Origin: a virus
DNA: 64,000 bases
Reading direction: 5' to 3' (one strand)
Virus record (IMG/VR): IMGVR_UViG_3300035703_000080
Location: 3,850 to 67,849 of that record
Each line of letters opens with the position of its first letter. Within the stretch, counting starts at the first letter, position 1. The notes under the pieces are model-generated. The model made no database searches and was not told the origin of the DNA. It saw only the letters and a program-made list of their open reading frames with translations. The translations under genes were made by a program, and so were the position numbers. Positions 3,001-19,598 of the stretch are shown here, piece by piece.

Positions 3001-6000
3001 CCTGTCGAAGAAAAGGAAAGGCCTGCGTCTGCGGTTGCGGAAGGGCCGTTGCAAGAAGTCATTTCTTACTCGGCCAATCTGAACAGGCATCAGCGCATGT
3101 TGGAGGCCATGCAGTTGCGTACGAAGACCGGCACTATTGTTCCGGCACTTTCCTACGCGCAACGGCTTGCCCGAGAGTCAGGCGCAGAAGTCAAGTTCTC
3201 TGTAGACGACCTTGCGCTGCTGGACAAAGACCCCAAGCGTGTGCTTAACGGGCTTGTCAGTCGTGCAACGGATCTCGAGAACAAGATCAAAAAAGCGGTG
3301 GCTAACTCGCGCGGGGCGGTGCTGCGCGGCGAAGTAGAACTGATCAACCGTTACAAGCAACTGGTGCAGGACTACGAAAACGCAGAGTCCTCGTTGGAGC
3401 GTTCGCAGATCGAGCCGGAACTGGACCTAGTTGCCAAAGAGTACAGCACCGCGCTCAATGAGTCTTTGGCCAAGCGCGTTGTTTGGAAAGGCCAAAAGCG
3501 AGATACGGCAGAGCTGCTCAATCTCTACCAAAAAATTGCCTATCTCGAAGAGCGGTTCTTCTTGCCGCAGGCGGCGGAAAAACGCACGTACCGCCCCGAG
3601 ACAGAAGCGGAGATCGCGGAGCGCGAGCGCGAAGCTGCGGCCATTTTCGAGTCTCAGCGCGAAGCGCAAGCCGGTGCGGGCACGACTTCTGGCGAAGCCC
3701 TCACGCGTTCGCAAGTTGCAAAGCGCCGCAAAGCGCAAAAAACGCTGTACAGCAGCAAGGGTGTTACGGCCCAAGAAGAGCTGTCCAACGAGGCGCTCAT
3801 CGAAAACGCCAAGGCCTACGCAACGGCGCAGGAAGTTGCGTTGTTGCGCAGCGCGCTTGAAAAACGAGATCGCCTTGAGCCGCTGACGGATCTTGAGCAG
3901 TTTGCGTACAACAGCGCCGTAGAAGCAAACCGCCCCAGCTTTGCGGACTTCGAGCCTCTGGCGGACGTCGTGCAAAAAGAGCGCAAGGGTACGCGCAAGC
4001 GCGGCGCGGCGTTGTCAGAGGAAGGCGCACTTTCTGAAGAAGCGCTGGATGTTATTGCCGAAGGGCGCGACATCGAAGAGGAAGTAAAGGCAGAAGAAGC
4101 CGCAGAGAAAGAATTTGAGCAGCGTGTCATGTACAGCGAGAGCGCTGCTACAGAAGCACCGCCAGAAAAGAAGAGTGTTGGTCGAGGCTTCTCTAAGAAA
4201 GAGATGCAAAAAGCCAACGAAATTTCTAGACTTTTCCGCGAGATCAAAGATGCGGAAGCAGAGTTGCAGGCAGAGGCGCAGAAGAGCCTAGAAAACAAAA
4301 CGCTTCTTGCAGACCGCAAACCCCTGCTGGACCGCCGCAAAAAAGTCGAAGCGTTGCGCAGCGAGCTTCAGCGATTGCTGAAGAAGGAAAAAACGGTTGC
4401 CGACGACGACGAAGGGGGTGTTGAGCTGTCGCGCGGTGCAACCGCCACGCCGTCCACTACCGCCACGGTCCGCGCGGAGTTGGGCAAAATGTTCCCTGAC
4501 CTCGGTCGGGTGCAGATCTACGACTCGGTTGACGCGCTCGTCCAGGCCAACCCGCAGTACAAGGGGCGCATCCCGGCGGATGCGCGGGGCTTCGTGGACT
4601 CGGCAGGCAACAAGGCCTTCCTGATCGCGGAGAACATCGACCAGGGCCGTGCGTTGGGCGTGCTGCTGCACGAGGTTGGTTCGCACATCGGCCTGAAGAA
4701 CACGCTTGGTGAGGCCCAGTACAACGCGTTGGTCAAGGCAGTGCAGACGTGGGCCAAGAAGACCGACGGCAGCACCGAGGCCAAGGTCGCCCAGGCGGCG
4801 CTGGCGCGTGTGGAGGCGGCGCAGACACCGGCCAGCCAGCGGGCAGACGAGACGCTGGCCTACGCCATCGAGGAAGCGGTCAACGCAGGCGTCAAGCCGA
4901 TGGAGACCAAGAGCGTCCTGGGGCAGTGGCTCAGCCGCGTCGCCCAGCTCTTCCGCCGTGCACTGGAGAAGTTCGGCCTGCCGCCCAAGGCGCTCGATGC
5001 GCAAGGGCTCGTGGACATGGCGTTCGGTGCGGCCAAGATGGAGATGCGCGGCATGCGCCCGGAGGGCGCTGTGCCGAAACGCGGCGAGCTGCTTTTCTCC
5101 CGCAAGACCGACTACGCCCCCGGACTCGCCGCCGCAGGCAAAGTCTCGGAGCAGCTTGTCGGAGGCCAACGCTCGTTCGTCGACAAAGTCAAGGCCAACC
5201 TGCTGGGCTTCCGCGCGCAGGTGGTAGACAAGCTCGCGCCGCTGGAGAAGGTCGCCTACGCCAACATGGACGACATGAAGGCGGCGCAGTTGATGTTCTA
5301 CATGCGCATGTACGACCAGCGCAACCACTTCACGTCGGAGTCGCTGGCCACCGGGGTGCCGGAACGCAAGGAGATCGTTCGCGCAGACGGGCGTAAGGAG
5401 TTCGTCATCGAGTCCAAGCCCGGTGCGAACATCAAGCAGATCGTCGACAGGCTGAGCACCAAAGCCGTCGTCAAGGAAGCAGGCAGCGTCGACGCGGCCA
5501 ACAGGCTGTTCACGCTCTACACCGCCGCCAAGCGTGCGGATCGTGTGGGCTACCAGAAGCTCGGGTTTGGCCGCGCCGCCGCCGAGGCAGAGCTGCGCCA
5601 GATCGATGCCGATCTGCGCTCGCCTACGCTGGACCCCAACGACCGCAAGCGCCTGCTCCAGCGCAAGGACTACTTGGAGAAGAACGCCGCCCAGATGCCG
5701 AGCGAAGCCGACATCCGCGCCGCCGTCAAGGAGATCGAGGCCAACACGACTCTGCGCGATGCGTTCAAGGATGCGCGGGAGATGTACAACGAATACAACC
5801 GCAACCTGCTCAACTTCGCCGTGCAGGCGGGCACTATCTCTGACGCCGAGGCCAAGCGCCTGCTTGCGGCCAAGGACTACGTCCCGTACTACCGTGTGCG
5901 CGGCGGCAACGCCGAGCTGGTGATCGGCGGCGAGAACCCCATCCGCATCGGCAACCTGAAGGACAACCCGCAGCTCGAAGAGCTGGTCGGCGGCGAAGAA

Positions 6001-12837: not shown

Positions 12838-12865
12838 ATTGTACAGGTCACTTCTTGGCCGTCAA
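12838..12865 (-). promoter_or_regulatory. Sigma70-like promoter overlapping a 16-bp operator-like site
   Basis: Minus strand TTGACG-N16-TACAAT; overlaps TGTCTAACATTGTACA (12830-12845). Confidence 0.55.
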
Positions 12866-15292
12866 CCCCCTTTCCGCGATCTCAGACTTGAACAGATCGA
12901 CCAGCAGCCGGTTGTCGTCAACCTTGCCCGCCAGGGCGGCGAACATCTTCTTCTCGACGGGCGAGCCTTGGATGTGGACGACGGTGACCTTGTCGCTGGT
13001 CTGCCCCTTGCGGTCGGCCCGGGCGCAGGCCTGGACGTACTGCTCGACGCTCATCAGCGGGCCGAAGAACACGACGGTGTCCGCCGCAGTCAGCGTGATC
13101 CCGTGCGCAGCCGCCTGGGGCTGCATGACCAGCACGCGCGGATCGGGCAGGGTCTGGAAGCGCTTGATGATGTCGCCTCGCTTGGTGGCCGTCACCCCGC
13201 CGTGGATCTCCTCGCACGCCACCCCGCGCTTGTTGAGGAACACCGAGATCGTCTCGATGGCCGCGCGGAACAGCGCGAACACGATGACCTTGCGGTCGGT
13301 CTCCTCCAGCACCTCCAGCAGCACGTTGAGCCGAGGCGTGGCGTCGAACTCCACCGTCTCCCCGTTGTCCGAGTAAGCCACGCCGCAACTGATCTGGAGC
13401 AGCTTGTTGAGCGCTGCCGCTGCGTTCACTGCCGTGATCGTCTCGCCTGCCGCCTGCGCCACCATCGCCGTCTTCAGCGCGTTGTAGTACTTGGCCTGCT
13501 GCGGGGTCAGCGGCACCTCTCGCGTCATCGTCACGACGGGCGGTAGGTCCAGGCACTGCTCCTTGGTGTAGCGGATGGCAGGCTGCAACGCCCGGTGCAC
13601 GCGGTCGGCGGCGTCGGCCTTGGGCGCCCACTTGAACATGGTGACCTTGTTCATCACCGTGTCGCGCCACGCGGTCTGGAAGGCGGGCACGCCCTTGGGG
13701 TTGACGAGCTTGGCCAGCCCGTAGGCGTCCACGGGCGACTGCGCCGCAGGCGTGCCGGTCATCATCCAGAGATAGGTGTTGGATGTCAGCAGCGAGTTGA
13801 GCACCTTCCACCGCTTGGTCTGCGGGTTCTTGTAGGCGTTGCAGTTGTGTACTACCCAGTGATCCCCAACAAGGTAGTTAGGTGCTCCTTCAACTTCGAG
13901 GTTGAAGACATCGACACCGCTTGGACATTCGATATACGAAACACTTTCCACCCAAGCGTCGCCAGTTTCTCTTCCTTCTTGCGATCCTGCTCTTGCCGTA
14001 TTTTCGCCGTATGGCTGTTGCCGTCCACTTCCAACCCCACCATCTGGTCGGGCCACGCGAAGTCGAGCTTGTAGTTCGTAGGAAAGCCGGGTTGCCTCCC
14101 ACCCAACGCTATTGGGTAGTTCCATACCCACCCCGCAGGCAAGACCTCGGAAATCAGTTGTTCGGCAGGCGTCATGCCCCTGCCGTTGCCGCCCTGTACT
14201 TTCGGTTTGTGCCATCGCGCCTTCAGTGCCGCCGACAGTTTCGCCCGATGCTCCGCTGTTTTCGGGCCTGTAGACTTGCCCCGTTGCTCTGGCGGCATTT
14301 TGTTGAAGTAGCTGGCCCCCGGATTCCGAGAGTGATACCTCTTCCGCGCGCAGGATTTCGAGCAGGTCAGGCCAAGCGGGTGGTTCTTTGCCATACCCCA
14401 AAGTACCCGGTGCCGCATATGGCGGAATTCCTGCCCGCAGGTATGACAGCTCAACACCAGATATGAGCCTTCTTCCCGTAAGATTTTTGGCGCACACCCA
14501 TCCGGCGTCTGTGAAGAAGGGGTGCTCGGGGGTGCATCGCAGTGTTTTTTCGTTTCCAAGACGGACCTCGACAAGTCGCGTAGCGGTATTGCGTACAAGA
14601 CGTTTTATACGTGCTACGCCGTTAGAAGTCAAGACCTTGTCCCCGGGCTGAAGCTGCTCGATTGAGTGTCGCCCCAGCGGCGTGCCCACGAGCGTGCCTG
14701 CCACAAAGCACTCATCGACGATCACGAGGTCGAAGCGCCCGTCGTTCTTCACCTCGGTCGAGATCAGGTCGAGCCCCTCGTAGTTGGTGATGACGATGTC
14801 ATGCCCTTCCTGCACGGCCTCTATGCGGCGCGATGCTTGCGCATGGTGGGCCACGATGGCGCTGCGGTGAATGACGGAGTTGCCGATGTCTTGCATCCAC
14901 GCGCTGTGCATGATCGACATGGGGCACAGGATGAGCACGCGCCGCACATCCCCGCGCGTCATCAGGTAGTCCGCCGCCCACAGCGCCGACAGCGTTTTGC
15001 CCGTCCCCGGCTCCGACAGCACGAACGCCCGCCGGTTGAGCGTGAGGAAGCTCGCTGTCTCCTGCTGGTGCGCCATCGGCTTGAAGCGCCCGGGCCAGTC
15101 GTAGCGCCCGTAGATGGGAGAGGGGACGTTGCGCACGCCCAGGTTGCGCAGGACCCGCGCTTCGTCCAAGCCCCAGTAGACCGCGATCTCGTAGCCCCCC
15201 GGGATCGGGAAGGCCTTGTGCTTGGGGATGATGCTGTACCGTTGCGGGTGCTGTGTCCTGAACAACAGGATCTTGTTTTCTACGATTTGCAC
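12848..15292 (-). CDS. SNF2/SF2 DNA helicase containing an intein
   Basis: Walker A EPGTGKT; Walker B VIVDE interrupted by an intein; MTGTP, HGITLT and QACARADRKGQ motifs. Confidence 0.9.
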   Translation of the reverse strand: MQIVENKILLFRTQHPQRYSIIPKHKAFPIPGGYEIAVYWGLDEARVLRNLGVRNVPSPIYGRYDWPGRFKPMAHQQETASFLTLNRRAFVLSEPGTGKTLSALWAADYLMTRGDVRRVLILCPMSIMHSAWMQDIGNSVIHRSAIVAHHAQASRRIEAVQEGHDIVITNYEGLDLISTEVKNDGRFDLVIVDECFVAGTLVGTPLGRHSIEQLQPGDKVLTSNGVARIKRLVRNTATRLVEVRLGNEKTLRCTPEHPFFTDAGWVCAKNLTGRRLISGVELSYLRAGIPPYAAPGTLGYGKEPPAWPDLLEILRAEEVSLSESGGQLLQQNAARATGQVYRPENSGASGETVGGTEGAMAQTESTGRQRQGHDACRTTDFRGLACGVGMELPNSVGWEATRLSYELQARLRVARPDGGVGSGRQQPYGENTARAGSQEGRETGDAWVESVSYIECPSGVDVFNLEVEGAPNYLVGDHWVVHNCNAYKNPQTKRWKVLNSLLTSNTYLWMMTGTPAAQSPVDAYGLAKLVNPKGVPAFQTAWRDTVMNKVTMFKWAPKADAADRVHRALQPAIRYTKEQCLDLPPVVTMTREVPLTPQQAKYYNALKTAMVAQAAGETITAVNAAAALNKLLQISCGVAYSDNGETVEFDATPRLNVLLEVLEETDRKVIVFALFRAAIETISVFLNKRGVACEEIHGGVTATKRGDIIKRFQTLPDPRVLVMQPQAAAHGITLTAADTVVFFGPLMSVEQYVQACARADRKGQTSDKVTVVHIQGSPVEKKMFAALAGKVDDNRLLVDLFKSEIAERGLTAKK
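13844..14710 (-). mobile_element. Intein (289 aa) in the helicase Walker B motif
   Basis: N-terminus CFVAGTLVGTPLG, block B CTPEHPFFT, block F/G VFNLEVEGAPNYLVGDHWVVHN, Cys +1. Removing it restores VDECNAYKN. Confidence 0.95.
13852..14598 (-). CDS. Vsr/DUF559-like PD-(D/E)xK endonuclease nested in the +1 frame of the helicase intein (start uncertain)
   Basis: CHTCGQEF...TCSKSC zinc finger, KTAEHRAKLS NUMOD3-like motif, YKLDFAWPDQMVGLEVDGNSH...DRKKEEKLATLGWKVFRISN nuclease core. Confidence 0.85.
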   Translation of the reverse strand: MYAIPLRDLSRSVLETKKHCDAPPSTPSSQTPDGCAPKILREEGSYLVLSCHTCGQEFRHMRHRVLWGMAKNHPLGLTCSKSCARKRYHSRNPGASYFNKMPPEQRGKSTGPKTAEHRAKLSAALKARWHKPKVQGGNGRGMTPAEQLISEVLPAGWVWNYPIALGGRQPGFPTNYKLDFAWPDQMVGLEVDGNSHTAKIRQEQDRKKEEKLATLGWKVFRISNVQAVSMSSTSKLKEHLTTLLGITG

Positions 15293-16542: not shown

Positions 16543-16738
16543 ACAGTGCTTTCTCCTTTTCGTCCATCAACTTGAGCACATGCTGAAGCATGCGCGCTTC
16601 TGCCCCGAGTTCAATCGCCGCGTCTCGGGCTTCTGAGTACCTGTGCTCTAGGCACAGGTCGTGTGTGCGCTTGAGCATCTGCTCCATGCGAATCATGGGC
16701 GCGGCGTAATCAACGATGTCAGTCTTTTGCAAGTCCAT
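16454..16738 (-). CDS. Hypothetical protein (MDLQKTDIVDYA...)
   Basis: Overlaps the polymerase stop; its C-terminal part overlaps the next gene and may be a spurious extension. Confidence 0.55.
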   Translation of the reverse strand: MDLQKTDIVDYAAPMIRMEQMLKRTHDLCLEHRYSEARDAAIELGAEARMLQHVLKLMDEKEKALYADTKANQGRQEAVHHQPARQAEEAIHGW

Positions 16739-19598
16739 AGCGTTTGTGCACGCCCCCGCTTGCCGATAGCGGAATCCCCGGCAAGTATGGAGGCTCAATA
16801 GTCATCTGCGCCAAGACCCATGTCTTGGCGTCATCCGCTTCGCTCTCCGGCGCGACTGCGATGGCCTCGTCATGCACCGTGCCCGCCACAGGGTAGCGTT
16901 TGTCGATGCGTAGCATGCCGTCGGTCATCACGATCCGTGCGGTGCCTTGGACACAGTTGTGTACTATGAAAGGGCCTGTGGCTCCTTTGACAACGAATCT
17001 GTTTCTCGGGCCACAGTTGACAATATCGTACACCTGTTGCTGAACGAGGGCGGCAGCGTCAGCAGTTCCACGGGCCAGCCCGATTTGAGTCGGTTGTACA
17101 ACGTAGTTCTCCCTATGCCCGTAGCCGCGCTTAGCGCAGGTACGTCTACCGCCCGAACTGTTGTGCGTTTGTTCATAGAATTCGTCTGCCGAGACACCCA
17201 CCGACAGTTCTCCGGCGAGTACGGGCCGTTGTTGTCCATACGATCCAAGTCCAAGCCTCGCGCATACGTAGCGCCCATGTCTTCCCAAAAAGCCGCGAAG
17301 CTGTTGCGCCATCTCTCGCAAACGTACACCCCCCTTGCGCCATAGTTTTTGTACGCTGCTTCCGCCTTGCTGTAACACCGCGCATGCATGTTGCGCCAAA
17401 CGATATAGGCGGGGTGCCGGCTCATACCGTGCGTGGTGTTCTTCTCCCCTATCAGCCGCCGCGTCATACAACCGCAGTTCGGAATCCCCCCGCGTTTGGT
17501 TTCTTTCGTTACGTCTGCGCCGAGCTTCACTGTCTGCGCACCGCATTCGCAGCGGAAGCGCCATTTCCACGACTTCCCGGTGGACGCCTCCGGGTGCAAC
17601 GCCGTCAACATGCCGAAGGTCTGGCCGGAAAGGTTCTTGAACTTGTGATGCGGCTTCCCATCCATGATCTGTGAGAACGAGGTGTTCCGGGGTAATGAGG
17701 ACGCCGTCCACGGTAACACAACCCTGAACTCCGGTCAAGATCTTCCCCGCATGCCGCACGAACTCCACCCCGTCGTGCACCAAGTCTTGCGGTTCGACGC
17801 TCTCTATGGGCACCCAGCCTCGCGCAGTAAGCACGGGCGTTCCTGCGGCCAAGCAGTTGTTGGTGATCTTCCCGGCGTACAGCTTCGACCGCTTCTTGCC
17901 GTCTGCGTACGTCCACTGGATGCGCCGCCCGTCGCCTTCGGGCTTGAGGTCAGGATACCGCAAGCTCATGCCGTTTGGCAAGACGATCTCCTCCTTGCGG
18001 AAGGTCAGGCACTTGTGGCGGTACTCGTTGCCCTTGAACAGGCTGTGGGTGATGAGGTTCTGGAAGAGTTCCCACAGACGCACGACGGGCTGCGCCGTGG
18101 CGCGGTACCGGGTGATGATGGCCTGAGCGGCGAGGCAGTGGATGAGCAGCTCCTGCGCCGTGCAGGAGTGCGGGATGGCCTCCATCGCCTTGACGAGATG
18201 CTCGGAGCCGATGAAGACGTCGACGTCGCGTGACGTCACGCCGAGCTGCCGCGCTTCTGCTTTTGTGTACCTTTTAGGTGGTGCACCGAGGAAACCCGTC
18301 AATAATTGTGCCGCGAAACTTGCCCACCCCAATTGGTACCCGCACCCAAGCAAAGCAGACTTTGCACTTTGTCTCTCCACCGGATGAGAGTCTTTAGTCA
18401 TACCGGGTATATTGAACATGCCCGCGCCGAATGTGGCGTAGGGGTCGCCGCCACCCTTGAAGATGTCGAGCAGCGTGCCGTAGTCGGCCAGCCACGCCAG
18501 CACGCGCGGCTCGATCTGGGACAGGTCTCCCACCACCAGCACGTGGCCCTCGGGGGCGGTGATGGCCTTGCGCAGGAAGCTCCCGCGCTTGAGGTTCTGG
18601 AGGTTGATCTGACTGCCCTTGCTGGCCGTGTACCGGCCCGTGGCGGCGCCGTAGTAGTTGACCGGGAAGGGCAGCGGCCCGCGCCGCGAGATGTCGAGGA
18701 ACCGTTGCGCACGGGTGCGCTGGAGCGTGGACTTGACCATCAGCCGCGCCTCGCACAGCAGGGCGACGGCCTCGTTGTCGGAGTTCATCATCGCCTGGAA
18801 CAGCGCGTCGTTCTTGGCGAACGCGAACGTCTTCTCCCCGGTGGTCTTGCTGACCTTCGTCGGCGGCTCGACGCCCATGCCCTCCAGCACGGCGGCGAAC
18901 TTGTCGTTGGACGCCAGCGCCGCCTCCTCCACGCCCAGGCGTGTGAGCAGCTCCTCCCGTGCTTGGCGCTCTTCCTCGATGGCGGGCTCCAGCATCGCCC
19001 CGTCCAGCACCAGCAGCGGGCGCGTGTACATGCGCAGGGTCAGGTCGATCAGGCGCAGCTCCTTGGACGGGTACCCGGGCAGCATGCGTAGGAAGATCTG
19101 CTCGCACAGCCACGTGTCGTGCTTGCAGTAGTCGGCCAGCGTCTGCTCGACGTCGAAGGGCAGCTCGTCGAGGATGTTCTCGGACGGGCTGAGCCCGTCT
19201 CCCTTGGGCGGCAGACCGTAGCGCTCGGCCAGCACCTTCAGGCTGTTGCCCACCTCGACGCCGTGCAGGGCGCGGCCCATGCTGAGCGTGTCGAACATGA
19301 AGCACGGCTGCACGCCGTAGTGCCACGACAGGATGCTGCCGTCGAACTGGGTGTTCTGGCAGACGAGCGCGGTACGCGTCCAGTCGATGCTGTCCGCCCA
19401 GTCTTGGATGCCGTTGCGGCGGACCCAGACGGCCTTGTTGTCCGTCCCGACCTCCTTCCACGACAGGCCCCACGCCTTGAAGCGCGGGTCGCGCAGGTAC
19501 TCCTCGTTGGTCTGGCACGAGAACCCGAGCTTGACCTCGCGCCCCCAGGACGTCTCGAAGTCCACCGCCAGTATGCGGTCGAATGGCGGCTTGCTCAA
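16719..19598 (-). CDS. polA: Family A DNA polymerase with 3'-5' exonuclease, containing an intein
   Basis: Exonuclease motifs DFET, NTQFD, YCKHD; motif A DLSQIEPR, motif B RQSAKSALLGCGY, motif C TVHDEA. Confidence 0.95.
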   Translation of the reverse strand: MSKPPFDRILAVDFETSWGREVKLGFSCQTNEEYLRDPRFKAWGLSWKEVGTDNKAVWVRRNGIQDWADSIDWTRTALVCQNTQFDGSILSWHYGVQPCFMFDTLSMGRALHGVEVGNSLKVLAERYGLPPKGDGLSPSENILDELPFDVEQTLADYCKHDTWLCEQIFLRMLPGYPSKELRLIDLTLRMYTRPLLVLDGAMLEPAIEEERQAREELLTRLGVEEAALASNDKFAAVLEGMGVEPPTKVSKTTGEKTFAFAKNDALFQAMMNSDNEAVALLCEARLMVKSTLQRTRAQRFLDISRRGPLPFPVNYYGAATGRYTASKGSQINLQNLKRGSFLRKAITAPEGHVLVVGDLSQIEPRVLAWLADYGTLLDIFKGGGDPYATFGAGMFNIPGMTKDSHPVERQSAKSALLGCGYQLGWASFAAQLLTGFLGAPPKRYTKAEARQLGVTSRDVDVFIGSEHLVKAMEAIPHSCTAQELLIHCLAAQAIITRYRATAQPVVRLWELFQNLITHSLFKGNEYRHKCLTFRKEEIVLPNGMSLRYPDLKPEGDGRRIQWTYADGKKRSKLYAGKITNNCLAAGTPVLTARGWVPIESVEPQDLVHDGVEFVRHAGKILTGVQGCVTVDGVLITPEHLVLTDHGWEAASQVQEPFRPDLRHVDGVAPGGVHREVVEMALPLRMRCADSEARRRRNERNQTRGDSELRLYDAAADRGEEHHARYEPAPRLYRLAQHACAVLQQGGSSVQKLWRKGGVRLREMAQQLRGFLGRHGRYVCARLGLGSYGQQRPVLAGELSVGVSADEFYEQTHNSSGGRRTCAKRGYGHRENYVVQPTQIGLARGTADAAALVQQQVYDIVNCGPRNRFVVKGATGPFIVHNCVQGTARIVMTDGMLRIDKRYPVAGTVHDEAIAVAPESEADDAKTWVLAQMTIEPPYLPGIPLSASGGVHKRYGLAKD
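16956..17855 (-). mobile_element. Intein (300 aa) in DNA polymerase
   Basis: CLAAGTPVLTARGWVPIE, block B ITPEHLVLTDHGW, VYDIVNCGPRNRFVV...FIVHN, Cys +1. Removing it restores KITNNCVQGTAR. Confidence 0.95.
16964..17665 (-). CDS. HNH homing endonuclease nested in the +1 frame of the polymerase intein
   Basis: NLSGQTFGMLT, WRFRCECG, NCGC, THGMS, WRNMHARC, YGARGVYVCERW, LDRMDNNGPYSPENCRW and a C-terminal HTH (GIGRTTLYNRLKSGW). Collinear with the free-standing HNH at 46517-47116. Confidence 0.9.
   Translation of the reverse strand: MDGKPHHKFKNLSGQTFGMLTALHPEASTGKSWKWRFRCECGAQTVKLGADVTKETKRGGIPNCGCMTRRLIGEKNTTHGMSRHPAYIVWRNMHARCYSKAEAAYKNYGARGVYVCERWRNSFAAFWEDMGATYARGLDLDRMDNNGPYSPENCRWVSRQTNSMNKRTTVRAVDVPALSAATGIGRTTLYNRLKSGWPVELLTLPPSFSNRCTILSTVARETDSLSKEPQALS

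Follow-up and report, generated by a model that had tools for sequence, protein, structure and literature searches.

In this study, a stretch of 64,000 nucleotides of viral DNA was investigated (positions 3,850 to 67,849 of the IMG/VR record IMGVR_UViG_3300035703_000080, a record of 67,849 bases rated 100% complete; the whole stretch is hereafter called the window), and we observed that an intein within its SNF2-family helicase gene is open in two reading frames, the helicase frame holding the splicing parts and the +1 frame a nuclease gene. With a probability that we place at about 0.8, this is a mobile intein composed of two genes on the same DNA, namely a Hint splicing domain and a homing endonuclease that would be made separately from the +1 frame. 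Both open frames are conserved in relatives, selection switches from one frame to the other along the intein, the +1 product has a nuclease fold, and the intein is patchily distributed, with near-identical empty alleles. The helicase gene consists of the following parts, dN/dS standing here and below for the ratio of nonsynonymous to synonymous substitution rates.

12848-15292, minus strand: open reading frame (ORF) of the SNF2-family helicase precursor, 814 aa, open through the intein (ORF list and Pfam)
14711-15292, minus strand: N-extein, aa 1-194, ending in motif II with ...VIVDE (intein boundary by motif)
13844-14710, minus strand: class-1 intein of 289 aa (867 nt), precursor aa 195-483, from the first Cys to the terminal His-Asn (boundary motifs)
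12848-13843, minus strand: C-extein, starting with CNAYKN... and including the stop codon (ORF list and boundary motifs)
14450-14710, minus strand: N-terminal splicing region with blocks A and B, where only the helicase frame is coding (codon-position variability and dN/dS)
13844-13957, minus strand: C-terminal splicing region with blocks F and G, overlapping the nuclease C-terminus, with both frames constrained (variability and dN/dS)

The helicase ORF matched the Pfam families SNF2-rel_dom (4.1e-22) and Helicase_C (5.7e-16), and within it Hint_2 scored 31.7 bits, above its cutoff of 28.4, and Intein_splicing 35.0 bits, slightly below its cutoff of 35.8. The insertion point is helicase motif II (DE|C), and the intein has a GC content of 0.57 against 0.65 in the remainder of the gene. 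An initial annotation, made from the letters alone, had described an intein of 289 aa with normal splicing blocks, and this description holds: C1 of block A (present in all 22 loci examined), T60 and H63 of the TxxH motif in block B, and the C-terminal H288 and N289 are invariant in 9/9 aligned relatives, among which residues 252-289 of the helicase frame are nearly invariant, and an extein Cys directly follows the intein in all intein-bearing alleles. Judging from these intact splicing residues and from the need of the helicase for an intact motif II, the intein is likely to undergo protein splicing. The same annotation saw no recognisable endonuclease in the intein frame, and Pfam likewise disclosed no endonuclease domain there at E<=0.1. 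When the intein DNA was modelled in the helicase frame, its predicted local distance difference test score (pLDDT) was 40.6, with residues 99-260 below 50. Two points tell against leaning on this model: the C-terminal splicing part also reached only 49-60, and the contrast with the nuclease model described below is an unfair comparison, indicative only, because the shallow helicase-frame alignment held 9 sequences against 81 for the nuclease.

The same DNA read at +1 contains the following features.

13852-14598, minus strand: open +1 frame counted from the first TTG, 248 aa, stop included (ORF list)
13852-14457, minus strand: likeliest nuclease gene, 201 aa, from GTG 14455-14457 (or TTG 14452-14454) to TAG 13852-13854 (start signals, model and dN/dS)
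14468-14472, minus strand: Shine-Dalgarno-like GAAGG, 10 nt before the GTG, a putative ribosome-binding site (sequence)
14350-14448, minus strand: N-terminal zinc-finger-like module, C4, C7 ... C32, C36 (Cys invariant in a 6-sequence alignment)
13855-14181, minus strand: Vsr-like/DUF559 nuclease domain, nuclease residues 93-201, with D132, E143, D145, H149 and D158 (Pfam, profile and fold)
13852-13854, minus strand: TAG stop of the nuclease, inside the last codons of the intein (...GTA GTA CAC AAC; sequence)

The initial annotation had given the positions of the ORF and of the two candidate starts, the latter after a GAAGG, and all were correct, as was the offset from the helicase frame, since (15292-14598) mod 3 = 1. 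Its claim that the ORF is uninterrupted and encodes a Vsr/DUF559-like nuclease was borne out by Pfam, profile and fold comparisons, and its NUMOD3-like motif found no support, as Pfam detected no NUMOD family in the +1 protein at E<=1. The protein matched DUF559 (PF04480) with 27.8-28.4 bits over a cutoff of 20.6, and MTES_1575 with 29.4 bits, below the cutoff of 38.2. In profile searches against the PDB, the DUF559 structure 3hrl was matched at 3e-11 and the homing endonuclease I-Bth0305I (3r3p) at 0.0058 over 57 residues; because of this difference the nuclease is nearer to DUF559 than to I-Bth0305I by sequence. The AlphaFold2 model of the 201-aa protein, built on the 81-sequence alignment, had a mean pLDDT of 87.9, the C-terminal domain lying mostly at 91-97. 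With VIA-align, residues 94-201 were superposed on the catalytic domain of I-Bth0305I (3r3p; Z 11.0, root-mean-square deviation 3.0, 91 residues), the DUF559 protein 3hrl (Z 10.8), Vsr (1cw0, Z 10.5; 1vsr, Z 10.0) and RAP-type domains of mitoribosomal proteins (Z up to 11.2). These Z scores are a second look at Foldseek candidates, and it counts against the fold assignment that Foldseek alone gave no match against the PDB at E<=0.001, its E-values being 4.6e-3 or above.

Within the 81-sequence alignment, D132, E143, H149 and D158 are invariant, and D145 and K161 occur in at least 90% of sequences; by homology, the conserved acidic and His residues probably have catalytic roles. The order of domains is a DNA-binding part followed by a nuclease part, the N-terminal module matching zinc-ribbon protein profiles weakly (E 0.03-0.4). 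We observed that the +1 nucleases of Vibrio phages CP-T1 (L001, 2369-3118) and 1.088.O (L003, 2324-3109) have two N-terminal Cys-x2-Cys ... Cys-Ser-Lys-x-Cys modules, and that those of the window, Vibrio phage 104E43.1 and Corynebacterium phage phi673 have a single copy. Among 1.84 billion representatives, 1744 relatives of the +1 protein were found at E<=0.001, and the best 150 of these were all of free-standing size (100-342 aa); a search of longer proteins (353-2000 aa) disclosed no in-frame fused relative, which is weak evidence. Again, a free-standing relative annotated 'homing endonuclease protein' lies inside a tRNA gene cluster of Rhizobium phage RHph_TM39 (L006, 1755-2297), so the nuclease family also exists outside inteins. 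A scan of genome contigs gave only three partial DUF559 matches, in metagenome-assembled genomes, and so no hint of a host.

With reference to GenBank phages, a tblastn search with the +1 protein matched 45 records, 40 of the matches lying under a long coding sequence (CDS) annotated as helicase, P-loop NTPase, 'coil containing protein' or hypothetical protein. Seven records were investigated (L001-L005, L115 and L116), belonging to Vibrio phages CP-T1, 104E43.1, 159E43-1b, 1.088.O and 1.194.O, Pseudomonas phage MR14 and Corynebacterium phage phi673. At all seven loci the match is offset by +1 from the annotated CDS, the intein lies at DE|C and both frames are open, the +1 frame for 215-263 codons; the +2 frame, our control, held 9-35 stops (16-35 at the seven loci). 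In IMG/VR, both frames are open in 14/14 relatives, whose nucleases are 68-88% identical to that of the window, so the +1 frame is kept open in every viral contig and GenBank locus examined. The offset is +1 in all 22 loci, and no stop interrupts the helicase frame across the intein, either in the window or in any of the 21 relatives examined. The short free-standing DUF559-like ORFs at loci L021-L032, which share one peptide pattern and have no enclosing long ORF, were omitted from all counts. None of the seven GenBank records (0/7) annotates the nested nuclease ORF, only the helicase CDS being listed, and the expectation that standard annotation would miss the nuclease is in this way confirmed in 7/7 records; in several of them even the helicase precursor goes by the name 'coil containing protein' or 'hypothetical protein'. 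The Hint N-terminal splicing regions of the window, CP-T1 and phi673 inteins share 35-42% identity and their nucleases about 30-34%, and in view of these identities the two-frame unit appears to have descended as a whole.

A sequencing or assembly artefact, in which two compensating indels had displaced an in-frame endonuclease, was ruled out, and its probability is practically negligible. No point was found in its support; 14 independent viral contigs and 7 GenBank phage genomes of different hosts share the +1 offset, both frames are conserved in the C-terminal overlap, and contigs from runs X2 and X3 span the stretch with 2 substitutions and no indels, so that the compensating indel errors which the initial annotation wished to see looked for are absent from contigs of other runs.

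These open frames also bear on the fractured genes of Dassa et al. (2009, PMC2677866), in which a Vsr-like or GIY-YIG endonuclease gene lies between the halves of a split intein, and on the idea that the helicase of the window is likewise made as two halves with a nuclease gene between them. In their account, as in the window, a same-strand Vsr-like gene lies between the intein parts of a phage DNA-metabolism gene, the helicase gp41 included, and the 3' end of the nuclease overlaps the C-terminal intein part (15 loci there). The host genes they describe are broken, with a stop after the N-terminal intein part, a spacer of 27-51 nt and a separate C-terminal start, and the overlap is 6-69 bp, whereas in the window it takes in the whole nuclease gene. 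Because no stop breaks the host frame along the nuclease gene, the window intein is contiguous; a split gene would have no need of the stop-free helicase frame seen in the window and its 21 relatives, nor of the selection on it described below, and we hold a fractured gene to be very improbable here.

Selection was analysed on 11 distinct inteins of 867 nt in a gapless alignment, with 55 pairs and the method of Nei and Gojobori (NG86), the intein of L019 (870 nt) and the duplicates L008, L014 and L016 being omitted. Over intein nt 1-261 the third codon position of the helicase frame is the most variable, and over nt 349-783 the most variable is the first, which is the third position of the +1 frame. 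The dN/dS values for the three frames are as follows.

Intein nt 1-261 (N-terminal splicing): helicase frame 0.11, +1 frame about 2.1, +2 frame about 2.1
Intein nt 349-783 (centre): helicase frame 1.15, +1 frame 0.17, +2 frame 1.43
Intein nt 784-867 (C-terminal): helicase frame 0.30, +1 frame 0.70, +2 frame 0.91

Purifying selection in the +1 frame of the intein centre, which had been predicted from the letters, is what we found (0.17 vs 1.15), and the helicase frame behaves there as a non-coding control frame. The last 84 nt show low variability at all three codon positions (0.14, 0.10 and 0.20), which fits a true double constraint, the nuclease C-terminus lying over blocks F and G.

The chance of a stop-free helicase frame was computed conditional on the nuclease protein and on the codon usage of the helicase itself. 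As a point against our reading, the stop-free frame of the window, taken alone, is only mildly unlikely (P about 0.17) and, because the DNA is GC-rich, little above chance. In four AT-richer phage loci, 15-20 helicase-frame stops were expected and 0 were seen (P 3.7e-9 to 3.6e-13). For a helicase-frame stop to arise, a nuclease codon must end in T and be followed by AA, AG or GA, and in the AT-richer loci such a T was found at 0 of 61-74 risky junctions, compared with 20-33% T at other junctions. As these AT-richer relatives show, the helicase frame is kept stop-free by selection.

Concerning distribution, at least 599 matches to the C-extein were obtained, and the best 80 of these, 74-99% identical, were examined. 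Among them 78 were without an intein, one was intein-bearing (on the same contig as L007) and one was cut, and in 77 of the 78 empty alleles Ala follows DE (DE|ANAYKN). The nearest empty allele, L038, is about 98% identical in DNA, with 9/540 N-extein nt and 15/855 C-extein nt differing from the window; four of the differences fall within six bases spanning the insertion point, comprising two synonymous changes in the Asp-Glu codons and the change from Ala to Cys. One intein-less allele, L041, has Cys after DE (DE|CNAYKN) and its sister L046 has Ala; the Cys of L041 may be the footprint of a precise intein loss. A tree of 93 C-exteins, from which L062 (which shares its contig with L007) and L081 (cut off ahead of the motif) were omitted, requires at least five intein gains or losses, three of them forced by well-supported branches, and places the window in a supported clade of four rows with three empty alleles. 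Two different searches supplied the rows of this tree, so that its proportion of intein-bearing alleles is biased, which must be set against the tree. At L009 the helicase is 46-59% identical to that of the window and the nuclease 86%, so the intein and extein histories disagree.

Empty and filled alleles were also sought in sequencing runs. In runs X5 and X19, sampled in another habitat and belonging to two studies distinct from the one behind X2 and X3, contigs pass over 873 nt and have 6 other letters in their place, so that the net gap of 867 nt equals the intein exactly. X5 has the empty allele at a depth of about 17 and pieces of the intein at about 5-6, so both alleles are in this run, and X19 (labelled RNA-Seq, rated probably DNA) has only the empty allele and flanks. 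A low-depth contig from X2 departs from the window at 13841 into sequence like that of an empty allele. Filled and empty alleles seem to coexist in samples, and the sequence comparisons suggest that the intein is probably mobile. Were the nuclease ORF instead a relic, or recruited for a job other than homing such as phage competition, the intein would be inherited vertically. In some helicase subclades (one of six rows and one of three) all members bear the intein, which fits vertical descent there. Against this reading stand the low +1 dN/dS over the 55 pairs, which argues against decay, the retained predicted catalytic residues, the lack of stops in the 14 IMG/VR and 7 GenBank relatives, the patchy distribution with its nearly identical empty alleles, the discordant identities of L009 and the two alleles in X5. 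Relic or recruitment therefore appears quite unlikely to us, and the mobile two-gene intein is the reading that we retain.

As regards how the nuclease is translated, the initial annotation had offered internal initiation or +1 frameshifting; the distant relatives favour initiation. In CP-T1, 1.088.O and phi673 no more than 1-3 codons of open +1 frame precede the start codon. At 6/6 gammaproteobacterial phage loci an ATG stands 2-5 codons ahead of the first zinc-finger Cys and has, 6-9 nt upstream of it, a GAGG embedded in helicase-frame codons for Asp-Glu-Val. Because of the late-opening frames and the ATG and GAGG of these distant relatives, internal initiation is indicated. Several observations from the window's clade weigh on the other side: the signal is weaker, with GTG or TTG 2-3 codons before the Cys in 10/11 distinct sequences; the nearest start of L015 is a TTG 11 codons upstream of the zinc finger; AAGG 10-13 nt upstream is kept in 6/11 distinct sequences; and for 38-52 codons upstream of the zinc finger the +1 frame has no stop. 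A consensus scan disclosed no promoter-like site upstream of the nuclease within the gene, which carries little weight either way.

A programmed +1 ribosomal frameshift near the end of the N-terminal splicing region would give a fusion of N-extein, Hint N-terminal part and nuclease, and the long open approach and the weak start signal of the window's clade are what such a shift would accommodate. Rare codons can promote +1 ribosomal shifts, and the helicase-frame codons AGA AGG CTC ATA just upstream look rare in this GC-rich genome. Across the clade, we found no conserved slippery site, nor is a hungry-codon pattern kept, AGA AGG being replaced by AGA CGG, and CTC ATA by CTC GTG or CTT ATA. 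The +1 stops that lie 1-3 codons before the start codon in CP-T1, 1.088.O and phi673 leave scarcely any room for a shift site, and the GAGG signals of the gammaproteobacterial phages, as well as the free proteins that make up all of the best 150 family representatives, likewise argue against it. For the window's clade we regard frameshifting as unlikely and internal initiation, from the sequence signals, as rather probable.

Taken together, the preferred mechanism would run as follows. In the helicase frame a class-1 Hint domain sits within motif II, flanked by DE on one side and, on the other, by a Cys where intein-less alleles have Ala. A linker of roughly 160 aa joins its N-terminal stretch of about 87 aa to its C-terminal stretch of about 38 aa, and in this frame the linker would have no fold of its own and would need only the absence of stop codons. 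With the linker open, the full precursor would be translated, the intein would splice itself out and an intact helicase would be left. Read at +1, the linker DNA is the real gene, encoding a predicted homing endonuclease of 201 aa with an N-terminal zinc-finger part for DNA binding and a C-terminal DUF559/Vsr-like PD-(D/E)xK domain. This enzyme is most likely translated on its own from the helicase mRNA through internal initiation, from a GTG or TTG after GAAGG here and from an ATG after GAGG in distant relatives. During co-infection, the nuclease would presumably cut intein-less helicase alleles at DE|A, and repair would copy the intein in. It is in this sense that we infer that the intein splices, that the nuclease cleaves, which site is its homing target and how it is translated.

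A second intein lies within the same phage's DNA polymerase gene.

16719-19598, minus strand: DNA polymerase gene with the second intein (open polymerase frame)
16956-17855, minus strand: polymerase intein (same two-frame design)
16964-17719, minus strand: +1 ORF of the polymerase intein, 251 aa (PHROG 374 'HNH endonuclease', 4.1e-55)

The 251-aa protein has no Pfam match at E<=1. By these assignments, the phage carries two predicted out-of-frame homing genes of different nuclease families. Both hidden nuclease ORFs terminate at an identical run of 13 bases, TAGTACACAACTG, at window positions 13841-13853 and 16953-16965 on the minus strand, which encodes the last residues of the intein (Val-His-Asn) and the start of the next Cys codon, the TAG stops arising from the codon choice xTA GTA.

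The design itself has precedents, and the novelty that the initial annotation implied was set too high, since out-of-frame intein endonucleases are already in print. One is found in a cyanobacterial dnaX intein (Phillips, DeSimone & Gogarten, bioRxiv 10.64898/2026.09.14.751524), a case credited to Gorbalenya 1998 as cited there and in bioRxiv 10.1101/2025.01.02.630785. In the latter preprint, Gosselin, Arsenault & Gogarten describe inteins of actinobacteriophages whose endonuclease genes are LAGLIDADG or VSR-like on the antisense strand, or endonuclease VII-like in 'frame 3'. As these sources present them, such inteins resemble that of the window in being contiguous, with an open host frame and the endonuclease in another frame between the splicing blocks, and in showing purifying selection in the endonuclease frame, a raised host-frame dN/dS and a sporadic distribution; the Gogarten group preprints propose that they originated when a free-standing endonuclease gene invaded a mini-intein. 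They differ in their nucleases, which are LAGLIDADG in the second frame for dnaX, and endonuclease VII-like in 'frame 3' or antisense LAGLIDADG or VSR-like for the phages, and in their host proteins, given as DnaX, DNA polymerase, minor capsid, terminase and thymidylate synthase. In contrast, the nuclease of the window is DUF559/Vsr-like, on the same strand at +1 and in helicase motif II, and the carriers are phages of Proteobacteria and Actinobacteria.

Two further systems were compared. I-Bth0305I, of the EDxHD homing endonuclease family (Taylor et al. 2011, PMC3239194), is described as having an N-terminal DNA-binding part and then a C-terminal Vsr-like nuclease domain, as here; it is reported from a group I intron of recA and with NUMOD2 and helix-turn-helix motifs, whereas the N-terminus of the window nuclease is zinc-finger-like. 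In the phage methylase of ShiLan (Arsenault et al. 2025, PMC11855218), a hidden HNH endonuclease is likewise out of frame in a stop-free host frame and has a GTG start inside the insertion; that report gives no detectable splicing domain, whereas the window nuclease is flanked by a complete Hint domain. Among the titles and abstracts listed in searches of the intein literature, no description of a same-strand Vsr-like gene in a contiguous helicase intein was found, and the supplementary tables of the preprints could list helicase cases. As far as these accounts extend, the window joins the overlapping same-strand layout of the dnaX and actinobacteriophage inteins to the nuclease superfamily of the fractured genes; the nuclease family, frame and host gene are newly combined, neither this host gene nor this insertion site appearing in them, and the general design is known.

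Again, the odds appear evenly balanced that this is an old, stable and obligately two-frame unit, not a short-lived intermediate toward an in-frame fusion or a split intein, which has moved between unrelated superfamily 2 (SF2) helicase families via motif II DNA and is common in phages, though unannotated. The unit is hosted by an SNF2 helicase with DEAx in the window and by DECH-box helicases in the Vibrio, Pseudomonas and Corynebacterium phages. Its age and stability are supported by the +1 offset in all 22 loci, by the similar divergence of the Hint and nuclease parts, and because no in-frame form occurs among the best 150 relatives or the longer proteins searched. The constant offset may persist since synonymous third-base choices in the nuclease gene alone avoid host-frame stops.

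Several carriers are in culture, among them phi673 of Corynebacterium glutamicum and phages infecting Vibrio lentus and V. crassostreae, which makes the start, the cleavage site and homing directly testable. Pipelines and catalogues that seek only in-frame endonucleases would class such inteins as mini-inteins and miss active homing genes, and the window shows that a whole nuclease gene under selection can go unannotated within a helicase gene that is itself well annotated. The intein offers a natural case of long same-strand dual coding, of about 600 nt, with one frame selected only for freedom from stops. Overlapping mobility genes of this kind bear on how inteins gained their endonucleases, where Dassa 2009 and the Gogarten group propose that a free-standing gene invaded a mini-intein.

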